Shown here: positions 2,766-33,818 of the stretch, in pieces | Position numbering within the stretch: the stretch's first letter is position 1 | Layout of the letters: each line of letters begins with the position of its first letter | NCBI GenBank assembly: GCA_025358305.1 | Contig: JANYJZ010000012.1 | Coordinates: forward strand, 9,022 to 73,021 | Length of the DNA stretch: 64,000 nucleotides | Direction of reading: 5' to 3' | Source of the DNA: Ignavibacteriota bacterium | GTDB lineage: Bacteria > Bacteroidota > Ignavibacteria > UBA10030 > SZUA-254 | Made by a program: the position numbers and the translations under genes | Notes under the pieces: model-generated | What the model was told of the DNA's origin: nothing | The model's input: the letters and a program-made list of their open reading frames with translations, nothing else | Databases searched by the model: none

Positions 2766-5135
2766 TCACTCGTACCGGACGGAATCGACGGGATTGGCGA
2801 GCGCCGCCCTCACCGCATGGAGGCCGACGGTGAGGCAGGCAAGAACCACCGCCAGGAGCCCGGCGATGAAGAAATCGGCGACCCCGATATCGATCTTATA
2901 GGCGAAGCTCTGGAGCCATTTCGACATCATGTAGTAGGCGAGCGGCCAGGCGATGAGGTTGGCAAGGAGAACAAGTTTCAACAGATCCTTCGTCAGGAGC
3001 GTGACGATGCCGCCGATGGAGGCGCCCAGCACTTTGCGGATCCCGATCTCCTTCGTGCGCTGCACGACCGACTGCGACACGAGGCCCAGGAGGCCCAGGC
3101 ACGCGATGAAGACGCCGACAATGGTGAACCCGAGGACGATGGACCGAAGCCTCGTCTCGGCGATATAGAGGTTCCGGAAGCTCTCATCGAGGAAGTAGTA
3201 GTCGAACGGACGGCCCGGGGAGACGCGCTTCCACGTCTCCTCGACGAGCTTCAGCGCTTCGCGCTTGTCCCCGTGAGCGAGCCGCACCGAAATGTACTTG
3301 AAGAACGAGGGGTTCGGGTTGAGGTGTACAACGAGCGGCTCGATCTCAGAGTGAAGCGACGCGTAGTTGAAGTCCTTCACCACGCCGACCACCTCTCCCC
3401 CCCGCTTCAGCGACGGAAAATCGATATGCTTGCCCACCGGCGCATCCCAACCGAAGAGCGCCGCGGCCTTCTGATTGATCATGAACGCTCCGGACGTGTC
3501 CGAGGGATGGTCCCGGGAGAAGCTCCTCCCCTGCGCGATCTCGAACCCGAACACTTCCGCAAAATCCAGGTCCGCCAGTATCGTGCGGGGACCGTACGAC
3601 TTCTCGTGCGTCCCCTGGGGCTCCACCTCGGCGATGACGATCCTCTCACCCGGCACGCCCAAGGACGCCGTGACCGCCGCAATGGCGTGCTGCTTCAAGA
3701 GCTCCGATTTCAATGAGGTGTAGCGGTCCGCCGTGATGCCGCTGATCGGCATGACGAGGACCTGTTCGGTGTCGAGCCCCAGGTTTCTGGTCTGGATGAA
3801 GTCAAGCTGCCGTGATATCAGGAGCGACCCGATGATGAGTCCGATGGAGATCGTAAATTGAAGAACGACGAGCCCTTTGCGGAGGAGCGAGGCGGCCGAC
3901 GAGGGGGATTCCGCGCTGTAGCCGGAGCGCATGATCCGCACCGGACGGAACCGGGAGAGATAGAAGGCGGGATAGCTCCCCGCGCCGAGACCGACGACGA
4001 GGCTCACGCCGAGCACCGCCAGGAGCGGCAAGATCGTCCCGCCGCCGAAGAGCGACGCGTTGATGCCGGCGACCGCGTTGAACTCCGGCAGCATGAGCTC
4101 CACGAGTCCCACGGCGCAGAGCGAGGCAAGGAACGCGCTCAGGACCGACTCGCCGATGAACTGGGCGACGAGCTGCCCCTTGCGGGCGCCGAACGTCTTG
4201 CGCATCGCCACCTCACGGGCGCGCCGCATGGAACGGGCCGTCGAAAGGTTCACAAAATTAATGACCGCCAGGAAGAGAATGAAGAGCGCGACCGTCGAGA
4301 GGATATAGACGTACCGGATGCTCCCCTGTGGCTCGATCTCCTTCTCGCATTCGGAGTAGAGATGGATGTCGGCAAGCGGCCGGAGAGAGACCGCCAGGGA
4401 CGACGTATCGGGCGTCTGGGTCCGAAGCCTCATGATCTTCTCGATCGCGCCGGACATCGCGCCGAGATCGGCCCCGGGCCGCGCGAGAAGATACGTGTAC
4501 GCCAGCGACGCAGTCCACTGCATCTTTTCATCGACTTGGGCAATGGGGAACGAACTGAACGAGCCGAGAAAATCGAACGTGAAGTGGGACTGCGCCGGGA
4601 CGTTTTCCACGACGCCGGTGATCGTATAGTCGGCCGACCGGCCGGTCTGAACCTTCAGCGTCTTTCCGATAGGGTTCTCGCGGCCGAAGTACTTCTCCGC
4701 CATCGCCTGGGTCAGGACGAGGCTGTTCGGCGCTGTGAGGCACTTCTCCGGGTCGCCGGCAAGGAGTCTGTAGTGAAAGACCCGAAAGAGCGTCGAATCG
4801 GCGAAGAAGAACCGCTTCTCGGTGAACATCTGCTGTTCGTTCCCGATGAGCGCCCGGCTCACGCGGTTGAACCGGACGGCCTCCTCCACGTCGGGACGCG
4901 TCGAATTGAGAAACGGCGCGATCGCGAGCGGCGTCGCCGCCCAGTTGTCGACCTCGACGCGGTAGATCCGCCCCGCGTTCGGATCCTGGCGGTCGTAGCC
5001 CAGCTCGTAGAGCACGAAGAGCGAGATGAGGATGCAGCAGGCGATGCCGACCGCAAGTCCGGAGATCGTAATGAGCGAGTAGCCCCTGTGCTTCACGAGG
5101 TTGCGAAGGGCGATGTTGAAGTAGCTGCGAAACAT
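2766..5135 (-). CDS. ABC transporter permease, duplicated FtsX/MacB-type (paralog 1 of 3)
   Basis: ORF 2766..5183. Start set to the ATG at 5133-5135 (MFRSYFNIALRNLVKHRGYS), preceded by an AGGAGA RBS. The roughly 790 aa protein has an N-terminal TM, a periplasmic domain, four TM segments, and then the same module repeated. Its C-terminus is the FtsX-type ...PVDSVRYE. Confidence 0.85.
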   Translation of the reverse strand: MFRSYFNIALRNLVKHRGYSLITISGLAVGIACCILISLFVLYELGYDRQDPNAGRIYRVEVDNWAATPLAIAPFLNSTRPDVEEAVRFNRVSRALIGNEQQMFTEKRFFFADSTLFRVFHYRLLAGDPEKCLTAPNSLVLTQAMAEKYFGRENPIGKTLKVQTGRSADYTITGVVENVPAQSHFTFDFLGSFSSFPIAQVDEKMQWTASLAYTYLLARPGADLGAMSGAIEKIMRLRTQTPDTSSLAVSLRPLADIHLYSECEKEIEPQGSIRYVYILSTVALFILFLAVINFVNLSTARSMRRAREVAMRKTFGARKGQLVAQFIGESVLSAFLASLCAVGLVELMLPEFNAVAGINASLFGGGTILPLLAVLGVSLVVGLGAGSYPAFYLSRFRPVRIMRSGYSAESPSSAASLLRKGLVVLQFTISIGLIIGSLLISRQLDFIQTRNLGLDTEQVLVMPISGITADRYTSLKSELLKQHAIAAVTASLGVPGERIVIAEVEPQGTHEKSYGPRTILADLDFAEVFGFEIAQGRSFSRDHPSDTSGAFMINQKAAALFGWDAPVGKHIDFPSLKRGGEVVGVVKDFNYASLHSEIEPLVVHLNPNPSFFKYISVRLAHGDKREALKLVEETWKRVSPGRPFDYYFLDESFRNLYIAETRLRSIVLGFTIVGVFIACLGLLGLVSQSVVQRTKEIGIRKVLGASIGGIVTLLTKDLLKLVLLANLIAWPLAYYMMSKWLQSFAYKIDIGVADFFIAGLLAVVLACLTVGLHAVRAALANPVDSVRYE

Positions 5136-5201
5136 GGACGAGTCTCCTATCGGTAACTGTGTAATTGCGGGTGGTGCAACCAACCCCGCGTCTGCACGGC
5201 G

Positions 5202-7598
5202 CTATTCATATCGTAGCGATTCGACGGGATTGGCAAGGGCGGCCTTGACGGTCTGGACGCCCACGGTAAGCCACGCCGTACAGACGACCACCCCTCCGGC
5301 GAAGAGAAAGACGCCGGGATCGACCGGCTGATGATAGGCGAAGTTCTCCAGCCACGCGTTCATCGCGAAGTACGCGATCGGGACGGCGGCGCAGAACGAG
5401 AGGGCCACGAGCCAGGCGAAGTCCCTCGTCAGCATGAGGACGATATCGGGGACCGACGCCCCGAGGACCTTCCGGATGCCGATCTCCTTCGTGCGCTGCT
5501 CCGTCGTGAAGGAGATGAGGCCCAGAAGCCCGAGGCACGACAGGAGGATGGTCAATCCGGAGAAGACCCCGAAGACCTTCAACAGACGCGTCTCGGCACC
5601 GTACTGCGCTTCGACCTGCTGGTCCAGGAACGTGAAATCCAGCGGGTGGTTCGGGTCGAACCCCTTCCACTCCGACCGGAGAACGTCCAATGCCTGGTCC
5701 ATGCGGTCCGGGTTCGCGCGCATCATGAGAAAATCCTTCCCTTCCGGGCTCATCTGGAAAATGGCGGGCGCGATCTCCTCGTAGAGCGGCCGGAAATGGA
5801 AGTCCTTGATCACGCCCACGATGGTCAATTGCCGCCCGTCGTCAGGGCCCATGAACCACTCGAGCGACGCTCCGATCGCCGATTGCGGACTTAGCCACCC
5901 GAACCGGCGCACCGCGGCCTCGTTCACGACGATCGATCGAGTAGAGTCGCTCGGGAACTCGGGCGAAAAGAACCTCCCCGCGGCGAGCGTCATGCCGAGC
6001 GCGCCGGGGAAGTCATAATCGGTATGATAGGTATAGATATCCTGCTCGTTTTGTGTGTCCGCGCGCCGTGCGACCGCGATGCGCGACGCCGGATCGGCCG
6101 GCGTCCCGGAGGCGCAGGTCACGCTCCGTATCTCGGAGTGCCGCAGGAGCTCGGTCTTCAGGGTGTTGCAGTTCTCGCGGTCGTCGTCGGTCTTCAAGTG
6201 CACGACAAGGAGCTGCTCCTTGTCGAATCCGAGCCTCTTGTTCCGGATGAACTCCATCTGGGCGCTCACGATCGACGTGCAGGAAAGAAGGACGATCGAG
6301 AGCGTGAACTGCCCCACCACCAGCACCTGGCGAAGCCTGAGGCCCCGCGGTCCGCTCTTCGTGCCCCCTTTGAGGACGTCCGCCGGCTGGAACCGGGAGA
6401 GGACGAAGGCGGGATAGCTTCCCGCTCCGACGCCGACCAGGAGGGCAAGCGCGAAGAAGCCCGCCGCCACCGTCCAATCCTCGCCGAAACGAAGGGAGAG
6501 GTCCTTCTGCGCGAGTTCATTGAACGCCGGCAGCGCAAATTCGATCAGCGCGATCGCCACGCACGCGGCCGCAAGGGAAAGCAGCAGCGACTCGGCCAGG
6601 AACTGGAAGATGAGGTGGTGGCGCAACCCTCCCATGACCTTCCGGATCCCGACCTCCATCGCGCGCATCTGCGATCGCGCCGTCGCCAGGTTCATGAAAT
6701 TAAAGCAGGCCACCAGGAGAATGCCGCACGCAAGCGCCGACAGGAGATACATGTAGGCGACCGGACCGAGCTTCCCGACCGACTCACGCGCGTCGGCATG
6801 AAAGTGGATGTCGGCCAGCGGCTCCAGTCCCATCGAGATGCTCGGGAAATCCGACGGCGCGTCGGCGTAGTGCTTCTCGACGAACCCTGGCAGGCGGGCC
6901 TGGAGCGCTCCGAGCGACGCGTCCTTCTTCAGAAGGACGTACGTCGGATAGCTGAAAAAGAACCAGTTGGTGAGCCGCTGCGGGCCGAGGTCGGCGAAGG
7001 GGAGGATGAAGTCGGGCCTGAGGTGCGAGTTTGACGGGATATGTTTCAGTACGCCGGTCACCTGATAGTCGGCCGCTCCCCGCTCGATCCTGAGCGTCTT
7101 GCCCAGGGGATCCTCGTCGCCGAAGTACTTTTTCGCCATCTCCGCGCTTACGAGCACCGACTGCGGCGAACCAAGGGCAGTCGCGGGGTTCCCCTCCTGG
7201 AAGGGAAAGTCGAAGATCTCAAAGAGGCTCGGATCGGCGTAGTAGACTCCCGGTTCATAGAAGAGCTTGTCCCCCTGCCGGACGAGGATCGACGTCCAGG
7301 GCTCTGCGACGCGGGCGGTATTTTCGATCTCCGGCGACTCCGCGGCGAGTGCCGGACCCATCGGCGCGGCCGAGCGCGCGATCGGCGTCTCCTCCCCGCT
7401 GCGCCTGATCGTCAGCGCAAGGCGGTAGATCCGGTCGGCGTTCCGATGGAAGCGGTCATAGCTCACTTCCTGGCGGACGTAGAGGAGAATGAGCGCGGCG
7501 CACGCCATCCCGACCGCCAGGCCGGCGACATTGATGATCGTGTAGCCCTTTTGGCGGCGCAGATTGCGAAGGGCGACCTTGAGGAAACTCGTGAGCAT
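5202..7598 (-). CDS. ABC transporter permease, duplicated FtsX/MacB-type (paralog 2 of 3)
   Basis: ORF track protein of 798 aa. The N-terminus (MLTSFLKVALRNLRRQKGYT) parallels paralog 1, and the C-terminus is ...ANPVESLRYE. Confidence 0.85.
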   Translation of the reverse strand: MLTSFLKVALRNLRRQKGYTIINVAGLAVGMACAALILLYVRQEVSYDRFHRNADRIYRLALTIRRSGEETPIARSAAPMGPALAAESPEIENTARVAEPWTSILVRQGDKLFYEPGVYYADPSLFEIFDFPFQEGNPATALGSPQSVLVSAEMAKKYFGDEDPLGKTLRIERGAADYQVTGVLKHIPSNSHLRPDFILPFADLGPQRLTNWFFFSYPTYVLLKKDASLGALQARLPGFVEKHYADAPSDFPSISMGLEPLADIHFHADARESVGKLGPVAYMYLLSALACGILLVACFNFMNLATARSQMRAMEVGIRKVMGGLRHHLIFQFLAESLLLSLAAACVAIALIEFALPAFNELAQKDLSLRFGEDWTVAAGFFALALLVGVGAGSYPAFVLSRFQPADVLKGGTKSGPRGLRLRQVLVVGQFTLSIVLLSCTSIVSAQMEFIRNKRLGFDKEQLLVVHLKTDDDRENCNTLKTELLRHSEIRSVTCASGTPADPASRIAVARRADTQNEQDIYTYHTDYDFPGALGMTLAAGRFFSPEFPSDSTRSIVVNEAAVRRFGWLSPQSAIGASLEWFMGPDDGRQLTIVGVIKDFHFRPLYEEIAPAIFQMSPEGKDFLMMRANPDRMDQALDVLRSEWKGFDPNHPLDFTFLDQQVEAQYGAETRLLKVFGVFSGLTILLSCLGLLGLISFTTEQRTKEIGIRKVLGASVPDIVLMLTRDFAWLVALSFCAAVPIAYFAMNAWLENFAYHQPVDPGVFLFAGGVVVCTAWLTVGVQTVKAALANPVESLRYE

Positions 7599-7665
7599 CT
7601 CTTATCCTTTTGCTGAAGCAGTACACAATGTCATTCTCACCGCGCGCCGGTCGGCTGCGGAGGGG

Positions 7666-10038
7666 CTACTCATACCGAAGCGCTTCGACCGGATTCGAGG
7701 TCGCCGCCCGGAACGACTGCACGCCGACCGCGGCAAGCGCCGCAACGAGCGCCGCGGCGCCTGCCACGAGGAACGCCCACCAGGGCAGAGTCGTGCGGTA
7801 GGCGAAATTTTCCAGCCAGGCGTTCATGACGTACGCGGCGACCGGCCAGGCGAAGAGGTTCGCGAGCATGATCAGCCCGACGTACTCCCGCGAGAGCATG
7901 CCGATGATCCCCGCTACCGACGCGCCCAGGACCTTCCGGATCCCGATCTCCTTCGTCCGCTGGCGCACGGAGAGGGTCACGAGGCTCAGAAGGCCCATCG
8001 AGGCGATGAGGATCGCGACGAGCGAGGCCCAGCCGAGCATCGACCGGAATTGCTCCTCCCTCCTGTACGCCCGGTCGAACGTCTCGTCCAGAAAGAAGTA
8101 GTTGAACGGTGAGGAGGGCATGACCCTCGCCCAGACCTCCCTGATGGCGCCGAGTTGCGCCCGCATGTCCCCCGCCCGCACCCTGATCGAGACATCCTGG
8201 AAGCGGTCGAGCCAGGCCCGGTTCGTGATGATGAGCGGCTCGATCTTGTCGTGAAGCGTGGCGTAGTGAAAGTCCTTCACGACGCCGATCACAACGTGGT
8301 CGCCGTTCCGGCGGATCGTCTTGCCGACCGGATCTTTCCAATGCAGCTCCCGGGCCAGCGTCTCGTTGATGAGATATCCGTCCTTTTCGGCCGCGGACGC
8401 GCCGGTGAACGAGCGCCCCTGCGACATCGCGATCGCGTATGTCGACAGGAACGCCTCGTCCGCGTCGACGACGTGGATCATCATCGGGGAGAGGCTTCCC
8501 TGCGGGAAGTAGCCGTTGCTCGTGAACCCGTCGTGGGGCACATCGGAGGACGCGCAGACCGAGACGACCCCGGGGAGCTGCGCCAGCGCCGACTTGAGGG
8601 GTCCGTACCGCCCCTGGGCCTCGCCGCCGACGAGCGGAAGGACGAGGAGGTTGCTCCTGTCGAACCCGAGGTCCTTCGACCGTACGAACTCGAGCTGCCG
8701 TCCGATGACGATCGTGCCGATCACGAGCCCAATCGAGATGGCGAACTGGAGGACGACGAGGATGTTCCGGGATGTCCGCTTGAACGAGGCGGTCCCCCCT
8801 TTGAGCGTCCGCACGGCGTCCATCGACGAGAGGTAGAGGGCCGGATAGAGGCCGCTCGAGAGCGACACGACGAGAGAGATGCCAAAGAGGGTCCCGAGCA
8901 TCGGGACCGTCAGCCAAGAGCCCGGCGAGAGATCCCTCCCGGTGAGTTCGCCGAACGCGCCGGAGAGGAGTTCCAGCAGGAGGAGCGCAAGGGCGACGGC
9001 GATGCCGGAGAGAAGGAACGACTCGCCGAGGAACTGTGCGATGAGGCTCCACCTGCCCGCCCCAAGGACCTTCCGGATCCCGACCTCCCTCGAACGGGGG
9101 ACCGCCTGGGCGACCGCCAGGTTGACGAAGTTCACGCAGGCGATGAACAGGATGAGGAGGGCGATCGCGCCGAAGATGTAGAGGTCGCCGCGCAACGAGG
9201 CTGAATCCGCGTTGTAGCGGAGGTGGACCTCTTTGAGCGGCTGGAGATACGGCTCGTAGGAGACGCCGATGCCGGAGAGTTGTTTGTTGATGCTCTTCCA
9301 CATGAGATCGGGGAAGCGCCGTTCGACGGCCTCAGGCTGGGTGTGCTCGGCGAGAAGGACGTACGTGATGTACTGGTTCCCGCCGTTCCAGTCGAGAAAG
9401 AGGTCCGGCAGCCGGTAGAGCGTCGAGAACGAGACGAGCGCCTCGAACTGGATCTGCGAGTTGGCCGGAGGGGGATCCACCACGCCGGTCACCGTATAGG
9501 GGTTCTCGTTGTCGAGTTTCACGACCTGGCCCACCGGGTCGCTCCCGCCGAAAAGCCTGCCGGCGAGATCCCTCGTCAGGACGATCGAGAACGGCCGGGC
9601 AAGCGCGGTCCTCGCGTCGCCGCGAGCGAGGCTGAAGGAGAAGAGATCGAAGAGCGTCGAATCGACGAACGCGATCCCTTCGACCTTGAGCGCTTCGACG
9701 CTCGTGCGCGAGACGTAGGCCGGCCGGAGCGTCGAGAGTCTCGCGTAGTTCTCCACCTCCGGGAACTCCGCTTTCATCGCCGGACCGAGCGGGGGTGTGA
9801 ACTCGGGGTTGTCCCCCGTGACCGCGCCCCGTTCCTTCGATTGGACCGACACGCGGTAGAGCCGGTCCGCCTTGGCGTGGAACCCGTCGTAGCTCAGTTC
9901 AAACTGGATATAGAGGACGATGAGAAATGCGATCGCCAGGCCGACGGAGAGCCCGGCGACGTTCGTGACCGCATAGCCCGTGCGGTTCCGCAAGGAGCGC
10001 ACCGCGGTGCGAACGAAGGGTCCGATCTGCCAGTTCAC
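7666..10038 (-). CDS. ABC transporter permease, duplicated FtsX/MacB-type (paralog 3 of 3)
   Basis: ORF track protein of 790 aa with a GTG start. FVRTAVRSLRNRTGYAV parallels the other two paralogs, and the C-terminus is ...SNPVEALRYE. Confidence 0.8.
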   Translation of the reverse strand: MNWQIGPFVRTAVRSLRNRTGYAVTNVAGLSVGLAIAFLIVLYIQFELSYDGFHAKADRLYRVSVQSKERGAVTGDNPEFTPPLGPAMKAEFPEVENYARLSTLRPAYVSRTSVEALKVEGIAFVDSTLFDLFSFSLARGDARTALARPFSIVLTRDLAGRLFGGSDPVGQVVKLDNENPYTVTGVVDPPPANSQIQFEALVSFSTLYRLPDLFLDWNGGNQYITYVLLAEHTQPEAVERRFPDLMWKSINKQLSGIGVSYEPYLQPLKEVHLRYNADSASLRGDLYIFGAIALLILFIACVNFVNLAVAQAVPRSREVGIRKVLGAGRWSLIAQFLGESFLLSGIAVALALLLLELLSGAFGELTGRDLSPGSWLTVPMLGTLFGISLVVSLSSGLYPALYLSSMDAVRTLKGGTASFKRTSRNILVVLQFAISIGLVIGTIVIGRQLEFVRSKDLGFDRSNLLVLPLVGGEAQGRYGPLKSALAQLPGVVSVCASSDVPHDGFTSNGYFPQGSLSPMMIHVVDADEAFLSTYAIAMSQGRSFTGASAAEKDGYLINETLARELHWKDPVGKTIRRNGDHVVIGVVKDFHYATLHDKIEPLIITNRAWLDRFQDVSIRVRAGDMRAQLGAIREVWARVMPSSPFNYFFLDETFDRAYRREEQFRSMLGWASLVAILIASMGLLSLVTLSVRQRTKEIGIRKVLGASVAGIIGMLSREYVGLIMLANLFAWPVAAYVMNAWLENFAYRTTLPWWAFLVAGAAALVAALAAVGVQSFRAATSNPVEALRYE

Positions 10039-10096
10039 CGGCGCCCCGGCGTTGTCCTCGGCATGCGCGATCGCCCGCGCGTGCGGCGGCCCCCGG

Positions 10097-17626: not shown

Positions 17627-17710
17627 GTTACTATTTCCACCTTTCGAGGAGTAAATCGACCAGCCTGACTCTTAAATGGATACGCCGAGGTCGCCTGACG
17701 ATGGGCGGCG

Positions 17711-18037
17711 CTATGCGGCATGTACGGCATCGAGTACCGCTTTGGGATGCTTCGCGACGATGCATAACAGGATCCTCGCCGGGCCTTCTGGTTTGCGCCT
17801 TCCTTGTTCCCAATTCCGAAGTGTTCCGAGGCTGATGCCCAAGAGCATGGCAAACTTCTCCTGCGTAAGGCCCAGCCGCCGTCGGATACCCGGTACATCG
17901 GGATCATCCATGACGGACCTGCGGCTCGGGGCCTTCCTACCCTTGAGGATGGCGCCGGCCTGCTCAACGCTGCTCAAAAGCTCATCAAATGTCGACTTCT
18001 TCAATTCTTCTCCTCGTGAGGGGGAATGTCTCCGCAT
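17711..18037 (-). CDS. HTH XRE-family transcriptional regulator, HigA2/NadS (COG2944)-type
   Basis: ..STFDELLSSVEQAGAILKGRK..DVPGIRRRLGLTQEKFAMLLGISLGTLRNWEQGRRKPEGPARILLCIVAKHPKAVLDAV closely follows the COG2944 antitoxin-like regulator pattern. No cognate RelE/HigB-like toxin ORF is evident adjacent to it. It lies in the low-GC tract. Confidence 0.75.
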   Translation of the reverse strand: MRRHSPSRGEELKKSTFDELLSSVEQAGAILKGRKAPSRRSVMDDPDVPGIRRRLGLTQEKFAMLLGISLGTLRNWEQGRRKPEGPARILLCIVAKHPKAVLDAVHAA

Positions 18038-18052
18038 TCACCTAGTGGGAAA

Positions 18053-18069
18053 ATACGCCATTGGCGTAT
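18053..18069. promoter_or_regulatory. perfect 17-bp palindrome ATACGCCATTGGCGTAT, candidate operator of the HTH regulator
   Basis: Read directly from the sequence. It lies 16 nt upstream of the HTH gene start codon (18035-18037), in the 174-nt gap between the primase-helicase stop and the HTH gene. Confidence 0.45.
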
Positions 18070-18210
18070 CGTAGTCAAGTCGATAAAAGGGGAATCCTTG
18101 GATCCAGAGGCCTTGAATCGATCAATGACCCCACGATCCATCGTTGAGATCGGGTAATTCGCAGGGCAGATTCTTCAGGCAAACAGCAATGTTCCAAAGT
18201 GGTTATCCCT

Positions 18211-20439
18211 TTAGAATGGTAAATCGGGTTCATATTCCGGCATCGGTCCGATTTTCGCATGCATCTTCTTGTAGTATCGTTCTCGTTGTTTGTACTGCTT
18301 TTCCAGGAATGGAATGTTTTTGTCTCGATAATCGATGATCCGTCTTTCTATACCAACGTCCCGTAATCTGCCGATGTATTGCATCAGCTTTCCTTCGAAT
18401 GAAAAGGGAAAAGCGAGAACGAGACATGATATTCCTTGAAAATCAAACCCTTCACCAAAGAACTGGCCGGTCGAAAGCACAGCACGGTAATGGCCATCTT
18501 CAATTTGCTTGAACTTCGATTTTCGGGATGGGGGAGAATCATCACCAGAAATTACAATCGTCTCGCACCTTCCCTTGAGATATAGATCGAGAACTTCAAG
18601 ATGTTCCTTTCGTTCGGAGAGGACGAGCACCTTTTTCCCCTGTTCGGTCTCTCGCAGAATGTCCTCAACGATCATTTGATTGCGGCCTGAGTCGAAGCAA
18701 ACGACCTTCGCCAGCAGCTGAAAGAGGTCGGTCCGGAACTTGAACGGGATAGCAAGCTTTGTTTGGCGGACGATCACTTCTGGAATCGAGCTCGATTTTA
18801 GGGAGGCGGGCATGAAGTCGGATGCTTCAACCCGCGCGACGATCTCGCCGATATACAGAAAGATCAAATCCTCGTCATTATGTTTGCGGTGAGGCGTTGC
18901 CGTGAGTCCATAAAGATATCGCGGATTAAGTTGGCTCACAACCTTTCGAAATGTCGACGCCGGAATATGGTGGCACTCATCGACGACGACAGTACCGAAC
19001 TGACTCTGCAGATCGTCGAAGCTACTCTTCCGCCCTAGACTCTGTAGCAGTGCTACCGTTATCTCACGACCCACCTTCTTCCTCGCTCCGGAGCATTCCC
19101 CGATATGTGCCTTGTCGATACCGAGAAAAGACTGTATCCGTTCAATCCACTGATCCATGATCTGTTTACGATGTACAAGAATCAGCGCGGGCAGGCCTCT
19201 TCTTGCGATTAGTTCCAGCCCCATAATCGTCTTACCGCTTCCGGCGGGTGCAACAATGACGCCCTGTTCTACACCCAAAGCAGACTGCACCGCCGTTTGC
19301 TGGGCCTTCGTGAGATTTATTGAACTTTTGAACCCAGCGCGAGGATAGTCCGGGCGGGCTGCACGAATCTCGTGTGCGATTCCTTGATCTCGCAAGAAAC
19401 TCAATAGCTTCTCAAGGAATCCTCTTGGTAGGAGTACATTACCTTCCGACTCGTCTATCAACTTGAAGTATTTTTGTACCTTGTACACAGACTTACCGAT
19501 TCGGCGCTTGGAAAGATACTCTGTGTTTAAGAAATTCAATTCCTCTTTCAGAAACTGTATGAGCCCGGATCTGAGTTGTGAGCGAGCAAGAACGAGCTGC
19601 TTTCCGACAGAAATTACCAACGGGCCACCTTGAGACTCGGCCTGCGAATAATTCCCCTGCTTCTGCGAAAAGAGCTTCATATAAATCTCATCAAGCTCGC
19701 CAGGAAGATAGCGCCTTGCTTCTTCCAAAAACCTCCATTGATCCGGGTACGGATTTCCTGACTGTAAATCGATGAAGACCGAATTCCCCATAGCGACGGA
19801 ACCGCCTTGCATTGGCAGTGCGATCAGATTCCCGAATCCATGCGCTGAAACCGAATCCTGGTTAGGAAAGAGGCGGTCAAAACTCACCTCTTTTTCGAAT
19901 TCAGAAATGTCGAAAGCCCTTCGAATGAGTTCAAGCCCAATCCGCCGACTTTTCTGACAAGGATATGGCTCATCGAAGAACAACCAGATGTGTCCGCCGT
20001 TGCCTGATCGGGAACGTTCAAGATAGGTGGTGAGTCCGAGCTGACTACACTCGCCGATGAGCATACCTGCTTCTGCCTTCCAGTTTGCACCATCGAAGTC
20101 AGCAGCAAGAAAAACAGACTCATTTGATCTCAACACCGGATAGATTCCGACAACGAGAGACCCGAGAAGATGCTTCCGCACGACTTCAGGTGTAAGAGGC
20201 AGCAACCGCTTATTTTCAAAATTCTTCAGCGAGCCCCCGAGCCGCTTGTGCGATATGAACTCTTCCCAATTGAAATCGTACGCGGGGCTGTATCCAGATC
20301 GACCGTCTTTTTCCCACCGACGGGCGTACGCATCTGATCGACCTCGGAAAAGGGTCATCAACAGTTTGATTTGTCGATCAGTTGGAGGGATCATGGAGGC
20401 ATTTTCATCGATTCCTTTGGCTCGGTCATCTCGAGACAC
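18211..20439 (-). CDS. fusion protein: N-terminal archaeo-eukaryotic primase (AEP/Prim-Pol)-like domain + C-terminal SF2 DEAH-box helicase
   Basis: The 742 aa protein starts at GTG, or alternatively at ATG Met16. The N-terminal half carries LFRGRSDAYARRWEKDGRSGYSPAY, the acidic DxD motif (FLAADFDGANW), sxH (SGNGGHIWLFF) and FGNLIALP. These are AEP catalytic-motif analogues. The C-terminal half has Walker A (VAPAGSGKT), DEAH-like (VVVDECHH), motif III (GLTATP) and helicase-C (LSTGQFFGEGFDFQ.. GRLRD). The coding GC is about 45% against about 65% in the flanks. Confidence 0.8.
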   Translation of the reverse strand: MSRDDRAKGIDENASMIPPTDRQIKLLMTLFRGRSDAYARRWEKDGRSGYSPAYDFNWEEFISHKRLGGSLKNFENKRLLPLTPEVVRKHLLGSLVVGIYPVLRSNESVFLAADFDGANWKAEAGMLIGECSQLGLTTYLERSRSGNGGHIWLFFDEPYPCQKSRRIGLELIRRAFDISEFEKEVSFDRLFPNQDSVSAHGFGNLIALPMQGGSVAMGNSVFIDLQSGNPYPDQWRFLEEARRYLPGELDEIYMKLFSQKQGNYSQAESQGGPLVISVGKQLVLARSQLRSGLIQFLKEELNFLNTEYLSKRRIGKSVYKVQKYFKLIDESEGNVLLPRGFLEKLLSFLRDQGIAHEIRAARPDYPRAGFKSSINLTKAQQTAVQSALGVEQGVIVAPAGSGKTIMGLELIARRGLPALILVHRKQIMDQWIERIQSFLGIDKAHIGECSGARKKVGREITVALLQSLGRKSSFDDLQSQFGTVVVDECHHIPASTFRKVVSQLNPRYLYGLTATPHRKHNDEDLIFLYIGEIVARVEASDFMPASLKSSSIPEVIVRQTKLAIPFKFRTDLFQLLAKVVCFDSGRNQMIVEDILRETEQGKKVLVLSERKEHLEVLDLYLKGRCETIVISGDDSPPSRKSKFKQIEDGHYRAVLSTGQFFGEGFDFQGISCLVLAFPFSFEGKLMQYIGRLRDVGIERRIIDYRDKNIPFLEKQYKQRERYYKKMHAKIGPMPEYEPDLPF

Positions 20440-22830: not shown

Positions 22831-23055
22831 ATGCTTAAAACCACGATTCGCCGTGTCGGCAACAGCCTCGGAATTACACTGCCGAAGACAATCGTCGAGA
22901 ACTATCATCTCGCCGAAGGCGATGAATTTCATCTCGTTGAAACAAGAGAGGGTGTCATACTTACACCATTCAGTCCAAAATTCGCTGAATGGGTCAAGGA
23001 ATATGAGCGCACCAATAAGAAGTTCCGCAACACGCTCAACGCGCTTGCAAAGTAA
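22831..23055 (+). CDS. AbrB/MazE/SpoVT-family antitoxin (Phd-like partner of Doc)
   Basis: The 74 aa protein has MLKTTIRRVGNSLGITLPKTIVENYHLAEGDEFHLVE, a swapped-hairpin AbrB/MazE-type fold signature. Its stop overlaps the Doc start. GC is low. Confidence 0.8.
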   Translation: MLKTTIRRVGNSLGITLPKTIVENYHLAEGDEFHLVETREGVILTPFSPKFAEWVKEYERTNKKFRNTLNALAK

Positions 23056-23453
23056 TGGCTACACGTTTTATACCCACCGACATCGTCCTGATCATTCACA
23101 CCTCCCTGCTCCAGCAGTACGGCGGCGAACCGGGTCTCAGGGACGCTGGCCTGCTTGATTCCGCACTCGCGCAGCCATCGATGTCGTTTGGCGGAAAGTA
23201 CACGCACAAGACGCTATTCGACAAAGCCGCTGCATACGGCTTTCATGTCTGCAAGAATCATCCATTCGTGGACGGAAACAAACGTGTTGCCCTCGCCTTG
23301 ATGGATATCTTTCTTCAGAAGAATGGATGGGAAATATCGTCGTCCGAGGAGGAAGCGTACACTATGATGATGGATCTCGCTTCCGGGCAGCTGCGAAAAT
23401 CCCAACTCTCCGCCTGGCTTAAACAGCACTGCTCACGGTTGCCCCGCAACTGA
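23055..23453 (+). CDS. doc: type II toxin Doc (death-on-curing, Fic/Doc family)
   Basis: A 132 aa protein with the Fic/Doc motif HPFVDGNKRVALA. Its ATG overlaps the antitoxin stop. Confidence 0.9.
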   Translation: MATRFIPTDIVLIIHTSLLQQYGGEPGLRDAGLLDSALAQPSMSFGGKYTHKTLFDKAAAYGFHVCKNHPFVDGNKRVALALMDIFLQKNGWEISSSEEEAYTMMMDLASGQLRKSQLSAWLKQHCSRLPRN

Positions 23454-29014: not shown

Positions 29015-30433
29015 TTACTTCAGGAGCATCATCCGCCGAGTCTGCTGGTAGAAGGAACTCTGGTCGCCGACGCCCTGCGCGGAGATCTTGTAGAAGTAGA
29101 TCCCGGAGGTGAGCGCCGAGGCGTTGAACTCCACGCTCTGCTCTCCCTCGTCGAGTGACTCGTTGCTGTACAGGGTGGCGACCTCCTGGCCGAGCATGTT
29201 GTAGACCTTCAGCGTTACGAGGCTCGCTTCGGGGAGCGAGAACTCAAGGGTCGTCGTAGGGTTGAACGGGTTCGGATAGTTCTGACGCACTTCGAACTGC
29301 GCCGCCATTTCGTCGATCACGGACGCCTGGTTGCGCGGGACGGTGACCGGCGGGAGGCCGATGGTCGTATGGAGGAACGGCACGGCCGTGATGGGCTGCG
29401 CCCCGGCAAGGACGAAGGGTTCGAACGAGACCGCTTCGTACGGGCCGTTGAACGCCTGGTTGATCATCGAGAGGGTCTGGTCCTGGTTCACGTACGCCGT
29501 CGGGGAGTACTGGCCGCAGAACGTGAGCATTGAATCGCTCCGCAGGGCGATCTGGCGGATCGTCAGGCCGTTATTCGGATCGGAGCCGTCGGACGGATTG
29601 CTGTAGAGGAGGTCGCCCAAGCGGCTTTCCGCCGGGTCGGTCGGCTCGGTGACGGAGCCGTCGTTCGCCAGCACCGCGAGCTTCAGGGCGTGGAGTTCGC
29701 CTTCAAGGTGGTTGTTATGCTTCTTCGCCGTAAGGTTCTTTTTGACGCCGATGAACGGCTTCATCTCTCCGGAGCTCGCGACGATGTGGTCGAAGCAGCG
29801 CGGCGCGCCGGTCTGGGGGAATTCGCTCTTCGTGTAGGCGAGGTCCCGGATCATGCCGAATCCCTGATCTTTGTCCGTCGGGAGCCCGAGGGTCAGTCCG
29901 ACGGGACGGATGACGAGGTTCTTGTAGATGTAGAGGAGGACGTTGCCGCCGTTCGGCTGAATGAAGACCTGCGCGTCGGAGGTCGACTGGAGCTTGATGC
30001 CGGTGTTCGTCCGACGGACGCCGGCGGCGTCCGTCCACCACCAGAAGTTGACCTGCGTCCCGGGCTTCTTGGTGTCAAAGACGGCCGTAAAGGTGATCGA
30101 GTCGCCGCTGTTCACGCCGGGTCCCATGAGGTCGGCCACCATCTTGTTGATGGTCACCTTTGTGAAGTGGCCCGAATCCTCGATGGCAAGGACGGGAGCG
30201 CTGAAGATCGCGTGCATACCGTACACCGGCCCGAAGCGCGGGTTCACGAACGTGAAGCTCACGCGGCTGCCGAGGATCTTCCCCGCCTTGGCCTTCTTCT
30301 GCGCAAGGTCGTCCTGGAGGAACGTCCGGTACTTTGTCTGCGCGCTCGAGAGCGCGACGATGCAGAGTGTGAGGGCGACGAGCAGCAGCACAAACCGCCC
30401 CAGAATTCCCCGGGAATTGTTAGCGTGGCGCAT
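29015..30433 (-). CDS. secreted protein with type IX secretion system C-terminal sorting domain (Por_Secre_tail)
   Basis: ORF 29015..30517. The start is set at the ATG at 30431-30433 (MRHANNSRGILGRFVLLLVALTLCIVALSSAQ, a signal peptide). The C-terminus, NYPNPFNPTTTLEFSLPEASLVTLKVYNMLGQEVATLYS..GIYFYKISAQG, is a classic T9SS CTD. Confidence 0.75.
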   Translation of the reverse strand: MRHANNSRGILGRFVLLLVALTLCIVALSSAQTKYRTFLQDDLAQKKAKAGKILGSRVSFTFVNPRFGPVYGMHAIFSAPVLAIEDSGHFTKVTINKMVADLMGPGVNSGDSITFTAVFDTKKPGTQVNFWWWTDAAGVRRTNTGIKLQSTSDAQVFIQPNGGNVLLYIYKNLVIRPVGLTLGLPTDKDQGFGMIRDLAYTKSEFPQTGAPRCFDHIVASSGEMKPFIGVKKNLTAKKHNNHLEGELHALKLAVLANDGSVTEPTDPAESRLGDLLYSNPSDGSDPNNGLTIRQIALRSDSMLTFCGQYSPTAYVNQDQTLSMINQAFNGPYEAVSFEPFVLAGAQPITAVPFLHTTIGLPPVTVPRNQASVIDEMAAQFEVRQNYPNPFNPTTTLEFSLPEASLVTLKVYNMLGQEVATLYSNESLDEGEQSVEFNASALTSGIYFYKISAQGVGDQSSFYQQTRRMMLLK

Positions 30434-30597
30434 GGACGTACTCCGTGTAAGATCGAACGTGGTGGATTTCGGTGGAACGAGTGTACTATAATTTAGAGAA
30501 AAGAGGGAAAAAGTCAAGCCTTTATTCCTCTTTTCGGGAGAGTTTTACTGAATTATCCGCCGCCTCACTTGGAGGCGCTAGGGAGGGCGGAAAAACG

Positions 30598-31849
<1,252 letters not shown>

Positions 31850-31857
<8 letters not shown>

Positions 31858-33079
31858 AGCGCAAGGCCTCCACGGGATCCATCTTGGCGGCGCGGTATGC
31901 CGGCATGAACCCGGAGGTCAGGCCGACGATGAGCGACACCATGATCGCGATGAAGACGATCGACAGGGGCATCGTCGCCCCGAGATCGAATGCGGAGTTC
32001 ATCAACTGCACGATGATGAACGCCAGAAGGAGTCCGATGAGCCCGCCGATGAGGCAGATGACCGCGGCCTCGATGAGGAACTGCATGAGGATCGTCCGGC
32101 GCCGGGCGCCGATCGCCTTCCGAATGCCGATCTCCTTCGTCCGCTCGGTGACCGAGACGAACATGATGTTCATGATGCCGATGCCGCCGACAAAGAGCGA
32201 CAGCCCCGTGATGAAGAGCCCGATCGCGCCGACGACGAACGTAAACTGCCCGAACGTTTCGGTGAGGATCTCCTGGGAGTTGATGCTGAAGTTGTTGACC
32301 TTGCCGGGGGTGAGCCGCCGGAGCGAGCGCATGATCCCTTCGATCTCGACCTTCGCATCTTCCATCTTCGGGATCTCCGCGACCCTGACGTTGATCGTCA
32401 CGAAGGCGTGGTTGCCGAAATGGCTCTGGAACGAATGGATGGGGACGAACACGCGCGAATCGGTCGTGAACTGGCCGAACATGCCGCCTTGCTTCTCATA
32501 GACCCCGAGGACGGTGTAGGGGAACCCGCCGACCTTCAGCTCCTGGCCGATCGGGTCGGCGTTCGGGAAGATCGTCTCGGCGATCGTCGCCCCGATGACG
32601 CAGACCGGGCGGCCGCCGTTCGACTCCTCGGCGGAGAAGAAGCGTCCGTCGATGTCCTTGTTCCCGGAGGCGTTGTTGTACTGATCGGTCGTGCCGGTGA
32701 CGAACGCGTCCTCGAGCGAATGCTTGCTCGTCGAGACCTTCGCCCTCCGGACAACGACGGGAGCGACGGCCGTCAGGAGCGAGGCTTTGCGCTCCAGGAC
32801 GGGGGCGTACTCGAGCTTCATGTCGGGGCGGTTCCGAATGAGGTCCCAGTCGTCGTTCGACACCCACGGAAATTTCTGGACGTACATGACGTCGGTCCCG
32901 AACGCCTTCGCGCTCCGGTCGAACGCCGCGTTCAGGCCGTCGATGGCGGTCGCCATCCCCGTGACGGCGAAGATGCCGATGATGATCCCCAAGGTCGTCA
33001 AGACCGAGCGCATCTTGTTGCCCCGGATCGCCCGGAAGGCGATGATGAGCCCTTCTTTGAGTTCGGTCAGAAAGTACAT
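31850..33079 (-). CDS. ABC transporter permease, MacB/FtsX family (second, non-identical permease)
   Basis: The 409 aa protein has the same architecture as the previous permease. It overlaps the downstream permease by 8 nt. Confidence 0.85.
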
Positions 33080-33089
33080 AGGCGCCCCC

Positions 33090-33818
<729 letters not shown>

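Follow-up and report, generated by a model that had tools for sequence, protein, structure and literature searches.

What does a primase–helicase gene do beside the gene of a helix-turn-helix (HTH) regulator, in a small island of low-GC DNA between two kinase genes? The question is raised by a 64,000-nucleotide stretch of DNA from an Ignavibacteriota bacterium (contig JANYJZ010000012.1 of assembly GCA_025358305.1), referred to here at its full length as the window, in which the two genes lie on the minus strand between positions 17711 and 20394. A prediction made from the letters of the window had treated them as a horizontally acquired two-gene module, with an archaeo-eukaryotic primase (AEP) fused to a superfamily 2 (SF2) helicase as effector and the HTH protein as its antitoxin-like regulator. 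Our analysis argues instead for two unrelated units, one a primase-polymerase (Prim-Pol)–helicase that probably serves in defence or conflict, the other a remnant of a toxin-antitoxin operon whose toxin is missing. We give this reading as a whole a probability of about 0.58. We are highly confident of its structural parts, namely the independence of the two units, the identities of their domains and the orphan status of the antitoxin; the conflict or defence role of the primase–helicase, which we infer, we regard as somewhat probable.

The primase–helicase

The gene of the first unit lies at 18211–20394 on the minus strand. The open reading frame (ORF) delimited mechanically (18211–20439) reaches a GTG at 20439 and encodes 742 amino acids, which include LFRGRSDAYARRWEKDG, FLAADFDG, GGHIWLFF, GSGKT and DECH. 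The likely start is the ATG at 20394 (Met16), giving a protein of 727 residues, because 21 aligned homologues begin at the position of Met16. Public gene calls on an identical Logan contig (L001, 3624–4209) place the start at Met28, for a product of 715 residues.

The amino-terminal domain had been proposed to be an AEP, and the hidden Markov model (HMM) search bears this out. The Pfam model PF22548 (AEP-TOTE) matches residues 23–251 of the 742-residue ORF (19687–20373, minus strand) across positions 2–229 of its 230, with a score of 252.2 bits against a cut-off of 27 (E=6.2e-75). The catalytic motifs quoted in support of the proposal are present, and the DxD aspartates (D114, D116), the sxH histidine (H150) and the acidic residues of motif III (D188/D195) are invariant across 22 sequences. 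The cas-associated PrimPol model of PADLOC matches the domain at 4e-65. The Prim-Pol domain of the Marinitoga CRISPR-associated primase-polymerase, CAPP (PDB 7nqd), is recovered with E=7e-19 by a family profile (residues 66–245) and with 2.7e-12 by the single sequence; GGHIW in the window protein aligns with GYHIW in the Marinitoga enzyme. An AlphaFold model of the full-length protein, for which only close homologues were supplied, was poor (mean pLDDT 60.8, with helicase lobe 1 below 50), and the fold search was confined to the AEP core, the only trustworthy part of the model. Foldseek placed CAPP Prim-Pol structures at the top for this core, with TM values of 0.74–0.76. XPB and UvsW came next, and the hits also included Prim-PolC and the polymerase domain of LigD.

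The AEP domain is followed by a conserved linker, residues ~252–373 (19321–19686), which has no Pfam match and is of mixed confidence in the AlphaFold model. It contains an invariant block (columns 300–342) that reads ELNFLNxEYxxKxxxGKxxYxxxKxFxLxxE...PRGFL. The carboxy-terminal part of the linker aligns with the region preceding the helicase core of archaeal XPB, the XPB/Rad25 alignments beginning at profile positions 329–342.

The rest of the protein had been described as a complete DEAH-type SF2 helicase, and this too holds. The Pfam domains ResIII (4.5e-27), DEAD and Helicase_C together span residues 374–691, so that both RecA-like domains are present, and the core as a whole (18367–19320, minus strand) is of the DExH, XPB/Rad25-like kind. 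Walker A (GSGKT, 400–404), motif II (DECH, 487–490), motif III (TATP) and motif VI (QYxGRxxR) are invariant in the same 22 sequences. Since the catalytic and the helicase motifs are both invariant, both enzymes look active. Compared with the PDB, the family profile matches archaeal XPBII at 9e-30 over the helicase. The protein scores 90 bits against the NCBIfam XPB model, whose equivalog cut-off is 610, and 53 bits against RadD, whose cut-off is 720. We conclude that the helicase is, to judge by these scores, XPB-like and not XPB, with a likeness confined to the helicase core. A PriCT domain was not detected in the protein by the Pfam scan, and the matches in PADLOC are at the level of domains, to the cas-associated PrimPol already mentioned and to the helicase cores of type IV restriction enzymes and of PbeA. 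As far as sequence can tell, the unit is a single intact, stand-alone gene in which a CAPP-like Prim-Pol is joined to an XPB-like DExH SF2 helicase.

Relation to named families

The primase–helicase belongs to a family that is already known and named. There are at least 531 confirmed matches in species-representative genomes, spread over Patescibacteria, Bacteroidota, Ignavibacteria and Proteobacteria. Full-length homologues are 59–79% identical to the window protein, the closest (60–79%) coming from Patescibacteria, Ignavibacteria and Bacteroidota, and RefSeq calls a 63%-identical homologue a 'TOTE conflict system archaeo-eukaryotic primase domain-containing protein'. Many of the homologues from Bacteroidota (L039–L080) are longer, at 975–1145 amino acids (for example L040 7959–11369, L041 10176–11378 and L047 9909–11360). 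Their additional carboxy-terminal region of ~280–400 residues has no Pfam match, is a separate downstream ORF in some genomes and is lacking in the window protein.

Among the relatives are the CAPPs, which have been shown by experiment to be DNA-dependent DNA primase-polymerases and which lose activity when the DxD motif is mutated (PMC8211822). A 'CAPP-Helicase' type has been listed, and CAPP homologues outside CRISPR systems mostly combine a Prim-Pol with a helicase and are typically found in mobile or transposable elements (Zabrady et al. 2021, PMC8211822). The window protein shares with the CAPP_A-class Prim-Pols an AEP domain homologous to that of Marinitoga CAPP, and the arrangement of Prim-Pol and carboxy-terminal helicase is common to both. 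It differs in scoring 78.7 bits against the NCBIfam model 'CRISPR-associated primase-polymerase type A1', where the cut-off is 200 bits, and in its setting, the window having no cas1, cas2 or Argonaute genes. Searches of the 64 kb for a CRISPR array, by Rfam CRISPR repeats, tandem repeats and spaced repeats, returned none.

The nearest precedent in defence is DRT7/UG10 (PPRT), a Prim-Pol–reverse transcriptase that acts against phages and has a side role in damage tolerance (PMC12439943; PMC9226505). It likewise unites an AEP/Prim-Pol and a second nucleic-acid enzyme in one large protein. The partner in DRT7 is a reverse transcriptase with a long carboxy-terminal domain, whereas here it is an SF2 helicase, and the likeness is at the level of the AEP superfamily.

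The TOTE naming had been suggested earlier as one that may apply. As the name of the family of the AEP domain it fits, since the domain covers the full PF22548 model and Pfam named this family after TOTE systems. TOTE denotes TPR, OB, TBP and Effector, as the name is given in PMC12458937, which cites Aravind, Iyer & Burroughs 2022. Among the Pfam-scanned ORFs within ~10 kb there is no OB or cold-shock domain that could belong to a TPR-OB partner, the sensor kinase, response regulator, aldehyde dehydrogenase and small membrane protein having been read by eye only. Nor does a TPR-OB family recur in the 120 ORFs that immediately adjoin the gene in 80 relatives. A gene with a TBP domain was found neither among the scanned ORFs of the window nor among the top 25 recurrent neighbour families of the relatives. 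The primase–helicase occurs instead alone or beside Fic, Schlafen-like, RhuM and AbiE genes. Since TPR-OB and TBP partners are lacking at this locus and are no recurrent feature of the relatives, we conclude that the primase–helicase is not part of a TOTE system.

The HTH gene, its operator and the missing toxin

The second unit occupies 17711–18078 on the minus strand. Its ORF as called runs over 17711–18037, and the likelier start is TTG 18004, which stands behind a GAGGAG and gives a protein of 97 residues (17711–18004). The assignment of this protein to the COG2944/HigA2 type of HTH holds. It matches Pfam HTH_3 and reaches 60.2 bits against the NCBIfam NadS model (NF041265), just above the cut-off of 60, and it can be described as a NadS/COG2944 (HigA2/YiaG/MqsA-C-like) protein.

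Upstream of the gene is a predicted sigma-70-type promoter (18050–18078, minus strand), with a -35 box TTGACT at 18078–18073, a 17-nt spacer and a -10 box TATTTT at 18055–18050. The palindrome ATACGCCAATGGCGTAT (18053–18069), a perfect 8-1-8 repeat, overlaps the -10 box. It is the sole 8-1-8 palindrome in the island, where 0.17 would be expected from shuffled sequences. The arrangement characteristic of type II operons of a RelE-like toxin and a NadS/COG2944 antitoxin, a palindromic operator (TACGCCAWTGGCGTA) over the -10 box, is thus found, as a predicted site, at 18050–18078.

To place the HTH gene, we surveyed its 80 closest metagenomic relatives (54–84% identical), of which 74 have enough upstream sequence to hold a toxin gene. 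A RelE-like toxin gene lies directly upstream in 70 of the 80. A primase–helicase is present in the flanks of none (0/80, with at least 1.5 kb available upstream in 31 and at least 1 kb downstream in 44). The converse survey of 80 relatives of the primase–helicase gave a single locus with an adjacent HTH homologue (82% identical), L013, from a metagenome-assembled genome of Bacteroidota. There the HTH gene is upstream of the primase–helicase and is the second gene of an operon, behind a 105-residue RelE-like toxin with which it overlaps by 4 nt. The DNA preceding this toxin reads TTGACA-N4-ATACGCCAATGGCGTAT-ATTCTAAT-ATG, with a 17-nt palindrome identical to that of the window and the promoter in the same position. 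A layout of TTGAC(A)-N4-5-palindrome-TATAAT-like box-N6-8-toxin ATG is shared by L013 and most of 58 metagenomic toxin-antitoxin loci. TACG[CT]CAWTG[GA]CGTA or a near variant precedes the toxin in nearly all related loci, and the exact form TACGCC-N3-GGCGTA in 18 of the 58.

In the window the site where the RelE-like toxin gene would be expected (18005–18044, minus strand) carries none. A TAG stands 8 nt after the operator, where relatives have the toxin ATG, and the antitoxin start follows 40 nt further on, so that operator and antitoxin start are just 48 nt apart. The intervening 12-codon stub, VNAETFPLTRRR, resembles the amino-terminal consensus of the toxins, MVIIETPIFTRR, which is only suggestive. 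Neither tblastn nor a toxin HMM built from 48 sequences and run over six frames found a toxin remnant in the window. Because the toxin is missing here while 70 of 80 relatives have one upstream, we identify the HTH protein as an orphan antitoxin. Public gene calls on L001, the identical contig, skip the HTH ORF, so that public databases probably carry no annotation of the orphan antitoxin.

Compared with the operons of RelE-like toxins and COG2944 antitoxins, then, the window retains the antitoxin, the promoter and the palindromic operator, and the toxin gene is missing. We read the unit as a remnant RelE-like toxin/NadS-type antitoxin operon and the palindrome as the conserved operator of its promoter, unconnected with the primase–helicase. 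The original prediction was right about the perfect palindrome; the link that it drew through this operator between the HTH protein and the helicase does not survive. The HTH protein would most likely repress its own promoter only, and would be neither regulator nor partner of the primase–helicase.

The island and its borders

The island extends over 17.63–20.51 kb (~2.9 kb). GC content in 400-nt segments is 0.62–0.67 in the flanks and 0.43–0.54 over ~17.8–20.6 kb, the deepest trough of the window, in accord with the drop described earlier. Gene by gene, GC and GC at third codon positions (GC3) are 0.634 and 0.868 for kinase 1, 0.640 and 0.886 for kinase 2, 0.491 and 0.525 for the AEP–helicase and 0.582 and 0.673 for the HTH gene. 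GC3 in the native genes (the two kinases, a sensor kinase and an NtrC-like regulator) is 0.85–0.89, and this measure separates foreign from native genes cleanly. The island is compositionally foreign, horizontally acquired DNA. Horizontal acquisition of a two-gene module is accordingly upheld in its first half, the foreign composition; the conserved module is not, the pairing being found in 1 of 80 relatives.

Both flanking genes encode Ser/Thr kinases with TPRs, and the description of them as native paralogues stands. They are only 36% identical to one another and are therefore old paralogues and not recent duplicates; the kinase family is very large in this lineage. The integrase or att remnants and tRNA genes proposed as things to look for gave nothing convincing: inside the island there is neither an integrase gene nor an att repeat nor any further gene of a mobile element, no tRNA gene marks it, and a search for flanking direct and inverted repeats at its borders was equally fruitless. 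The contigs of the 78%- and 63%-identical relatives are not syntenic with the window, although one of them carries two tandem kinases, a different pair.

Two further observations concern the borders. A 19-nt direct repeat (17640–17658 and 18208–18226; 15/19 identical, 79%) brackets the 568-bp toxin-antitoxin remnant, one copy being at the 3′ end of the primase–helicase ORF and the second a short way upstream of kinase 1. A cassette insertion could have left it as a footprint, but its occurrence is within the chance expectation of the repeat search. On the contig of the closest relative (79% identical; L167, 140–225), the start codon of the primase–helicase abuts a frameshifted 5′ fragment of a kinase gene, ~16 codons long (...GRIVSHYRILEKL) and from the same Ser/Thr kinase family as the flanks of the island; a weaker, 7-codon likeness to this fragment (ATGACCGAGCCAAAGGAATCG) occurs in the window at 20401–20421. 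The kinase fragment could reflect a shared insertion neighbourhood, a target preference or the mere abundance of kinases.

Neighbours of the primase–helicase relatives and a possible role

To ask what company the primase–helicase keeps, we took 80 genomic relatives (43–68% identical) and the 120 ORFs lying within 400 bp of them; 76 loci could be evaluated. Fic-family genes are the commonest direct neighbours, 14 of the 120 matching SoFic of PADLOC (best E 2e-118). Schlafen/AlbA_2 proteins account for 12–14, most of them with HATPase_c_4 (14 match PDC-S04 and 12 PDC-S24), and RhuM (PDC-S05) and AbiEii for 4–5 each. HipA, a UvrD-like helicase and a STAND-like ATPase are among the single cases. 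At least one Fic, AlbA_2, RhuM or AbiE gene adjoins the primase–helicase within 400 bp in 40 of the 76 loci, usually on the same strand, and in a 68%-identical relative an AbiEi–AbiEii pair directly precedes it. As a control, 120 ORFs situated 4.5–8 kb from the gene at these loci were scanned, and none of the PADLOC families was represented there more than twice. The association with SoFic-like, Schlafen-like, RhuM and AbiE genes, and the absence from phages described below, may be new; we found neither point in the literature.

These neighbours invite comparison with restriction systems. RhuM-like and Fic/Doc toxins ride in restriction-modification operons as second-line toxins (PMC3710099), and toxin families of such operons (Fic/Doc, RhuM, AbiE) also adjoin the relatives of the primase–helicase, which shares with the type I and III restriction translocases (HsdR/Res) a ResIII-type helicase core. 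It differs from them in having a Prim-Pol in the place of the nuclease domain and in lacking methyltransferase and specificity genes, and the PADLOC restriction models match its helicase core only. If the enzyme does act in conflict, the helicase/translocase would open foreign duplex DNA or track along it, and the Prim-Pol domain would prime de novo and extend DNA on the exposed strand. The DNA so made could derail replication of the invader, or yield products that act together with second-line toxins, which in relatives would be the SoFic-like Fic, Schlafen/AlbA_2-ATPase, RhuM and AbiE proteins encoded alongside. A broader and more doubtful proposal is that the family represents a class of restriction-like immune modules, in which an AEP replaces the nuclease of an HsdR/Res-type translocase, the adjacent toxins are interchangeable and immunity comes from illegitimate priming and synthesis and not from cleavage; the window copy would then be a minimal form of such a module, its toxin partner having decayed.

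A number of observations weigh against a defence role or against the reading as a whole. The mechanism just outlined is one that we infer from domains and neighbourhoods only. Our search of the literature found no experimental defence test of any member of the Prim-Pol–helicase family, and PADLOC-DB v2.0.0 gives no full-length match to any described system component. No intact toxin partner adjoins the window gene, whose surroundings offer just the decayed remnant of the toxin-antitoxin operon and, past a kinase gene at a distance of 2.4 kb, a MazE-Doc pair; the likeness of the stub VNAETFPLTRRR to the toxin is not significant in an HMM search. An empty-site genome that would prove the insertion and define its ends was not found, either among orthologues of kinase 1 or on the contigs of the 78% and 63% relatives. 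Mean column identity is 72% across phyla, which would also fit the gene of a recently spreading selfish element. An integrase or recombinase lies within 6 kb in 15 of the 76 loci, and the integrative island that holds a distant E. coli homologue is AlpA-YfjI(DUF3987)-Gp2-like.

Alternative explanations

The last three of these points speak for a different function, that of a replication module of a decayed integrative element or small plasmid, stabilised perhaps by the toxin-antitoxin operon as an addiction module. The protein would then be an initiator comparable with pRN1 ORF904 or with the pair formed by AgaPP and a DUF3987 helicase. Pairs of Prim-Pol and helicase are the classical replicases of mobile elements, and those of the pRN1 ORF904 type and of AgaPP with its PriCT-DUF3987 helicase are, like the window gene, Prim-Pols coupled with a helicase and horizontally mobile (PMC5862659; PMC11724360). 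Toxin-antitoxin genes (AbiE, RelE/NadS, HigBA, HipA) recur beside the primase–helicase, and the order at L013, toxin-antitoxin genes and then helicase, could be that of the window, helicase and then toxin-antitoxin genes, in a circle opened at a different point.

We nevertheless consider this explanation unlikely. The known modules use SF3, SF4, DUF3987, MCM or RepA-type helicases together with PriCT or winged-helix origin-binding domains, whereas the helicase here is of the XPB/HsdR-like SF2 kind. The island is without integrase, att repeats, element genes or tRNA, and DNA similarity between relatives ends at the ends of the ORF. No terminal overlap indicative of circularity was found among the fetched contigs, and what most often adjoins the gene is a Fic or Schlafen-like gene rather than one for partition or mobilisation. 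The original prediction had allowed that homologues might prove to be replication initiators of phages or plasmids. In 50,697 phage genomes there is no full-length match, only matches to the helicase domain, and in IMG/VR just 2 of the 80 loci kept from the scan have full-length matches, at 34–35% identity. PLSDB contains 91 plasmids with full-length homologues (~28–35% identity), every one of them at least 47 kb in size; a replication gene was seen near the match on only one plasmid, Pantoea pDSJ06, and it encodes the plasmid's own IncFII RepA. These searches brought to light no homologue serving as the replication initiator of a phage or small plasmid, which favours a conflict or defence role over a replication module.

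The E. coli homologues themselves (L082 and L084, in the plasmid records NZ_CP010208.1 and NZ_CP124742.1) are full-length, 34% identical and annotated just as 'DEAD/DEAH box helicase family protein'. They stand in a conserved arrangement, AlpA - YfjI(DUF3987) - inovirus-Gp2-type - helicase, typical of P4/CP4-like integrative islands. They may correspond to the AEP family called 'Z1568-like' by Iyer et al. 2005.

Less probable again is an accessory enzyme of DNA repair or damage tolerance, whose helicase would serve to open damaged DNA and whose Prim-Pol would act by re-priming or by gap filling. The helicase does resemble the repair helicases XPB, RadD and UvsW, and the fold search returned Prim-PolC and the LigD polymerase domain. 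Mycobacterial Prim-PolC has been shown to have comparable activities, as have AgaPP, which carries out translesion synthesis and microhomology-mediated end joining, and the PPRT Prim-Pol domain; both of the latter are active in repair (PMC11724360; PMC12439943). The scores are far under the XPB and RadD cut-offs, however, and the patchy, horizontally transferred distribution and foreign composition fit poorly with this role, as do the neighbours, which are toxins and defence candidates and not ligase, Ku or nuclease partners such as Bax1.

The arrangement put forward originally, with the HigA2-type HTH protein controlling a primase–helicase effector through the palindrome, we now regard as very improbable. 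In its favour are the common strand, the spacing of 206 bp, the single low-GC island and the recurrence of an 82%-identical HTH gene beside the primase–helicase of L013. At L013, however, the HTH gene lies upstream and behind its own RelE-like toxin. The checks of neighbourhood conservation that had been suggested found the pairing in 1 of 80 relatives of one gene and 0 of 80 relatives of the other, 79 of 80 primase–helicase relatives being without the HTH gene and 70 of 80 HTH relatives having a toxin. The operator is in the HTH gene's own promoter, downstream of the helicase gene, and the two genes differ in composition, with GC3 values of 0.525 and 0.673. What had been taken for an antitoxin-like HTH protein paired with a primase–helicase effector thus reduces to an ordinary toxin-antitoxin operon with its toxin missing.

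A canonical TOTE system in which the flanking kinases supplied the TPR component, as the Pfam and RefSeq names and the TPRs in both flanking genes might suggest, is scarcely credible, the repeats being fused to native Ser/Thr kinases (GC3 0.87–0.89) and not to an OB or cold-shock domain, the kinases being absent from 80 of 80 genomic primase–helicase loci, and no TBP-like gene being nearby.

Other features of the window

Within ~10 kb of the island the window encodes, besides the two kinases, MacB/FtsX permeases, an ABC ATPase, an HlyD protein, a two-component system, the MazE-Doc pair, a glyoxalase and a protein sorted by the type IX secretion system. The MazE-Doc genes form a second small low-GC islet (22831–23453, plus strand; GC3 0.53 and 0.65) beyond kinase 2. 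A MazE/AbrB-type antitoxin of 74 residues and a Doc/Fic-family toxin of 132 residues overlap there by 1 nt; the pair is apparently an intact toxin-antitoxin system of type II and is separated from the primase–helicase by 2.4 kb.

At 2770–10040 and 30600–33100 there are tandem paralogous genes for MacB/FtsX-type ABC permeases, with genes for an ABC ATPase and an HlyD-family protein. The permease paralogues are spaced at 2.4-kb repeats and are 60–85% identical in DNA in blocks; they form a native expanded cluster of the efflux or lipoprotein-release type. The gene at 29015–30517 (minus strand) encodes a protein with a Por_Secre_tail domain for type IX secretion sorting. Taken with kinase homologues that are named Ignavibacteriae/Bacteroidota, it assigns the host, whose GC content of 61% is unusually rich, to the FCB group.

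Implications

Once dissected, the locus is ordinary, comprising a named, uncharacterised Prim-Pol–helicase and a toxin-less antitoxin, and neither the proposed new toxin-antitoxin architecture nor the assignment to a TOTE system can be upheld here. What it offers is a testable lead, a family absent from phages, borne by plasmids only when these are large, and bracketed in about half of the loci examined by toxin families that also go with restriction systems. Cultured carriers in which the partner gene is present include Christiangramia antarctica KCTC 52925, Dysgonomonas sp. Marseille-P4361, Chitinophaga sp. sic0106 and Flavobacterium sp. ZT3R18. If the primase–helicase is indeed an immune enzyme, it would represent a defence built on priming and polymerisation by an AEP, and would provide a function for the non-CRISPR relatives of CAPP.

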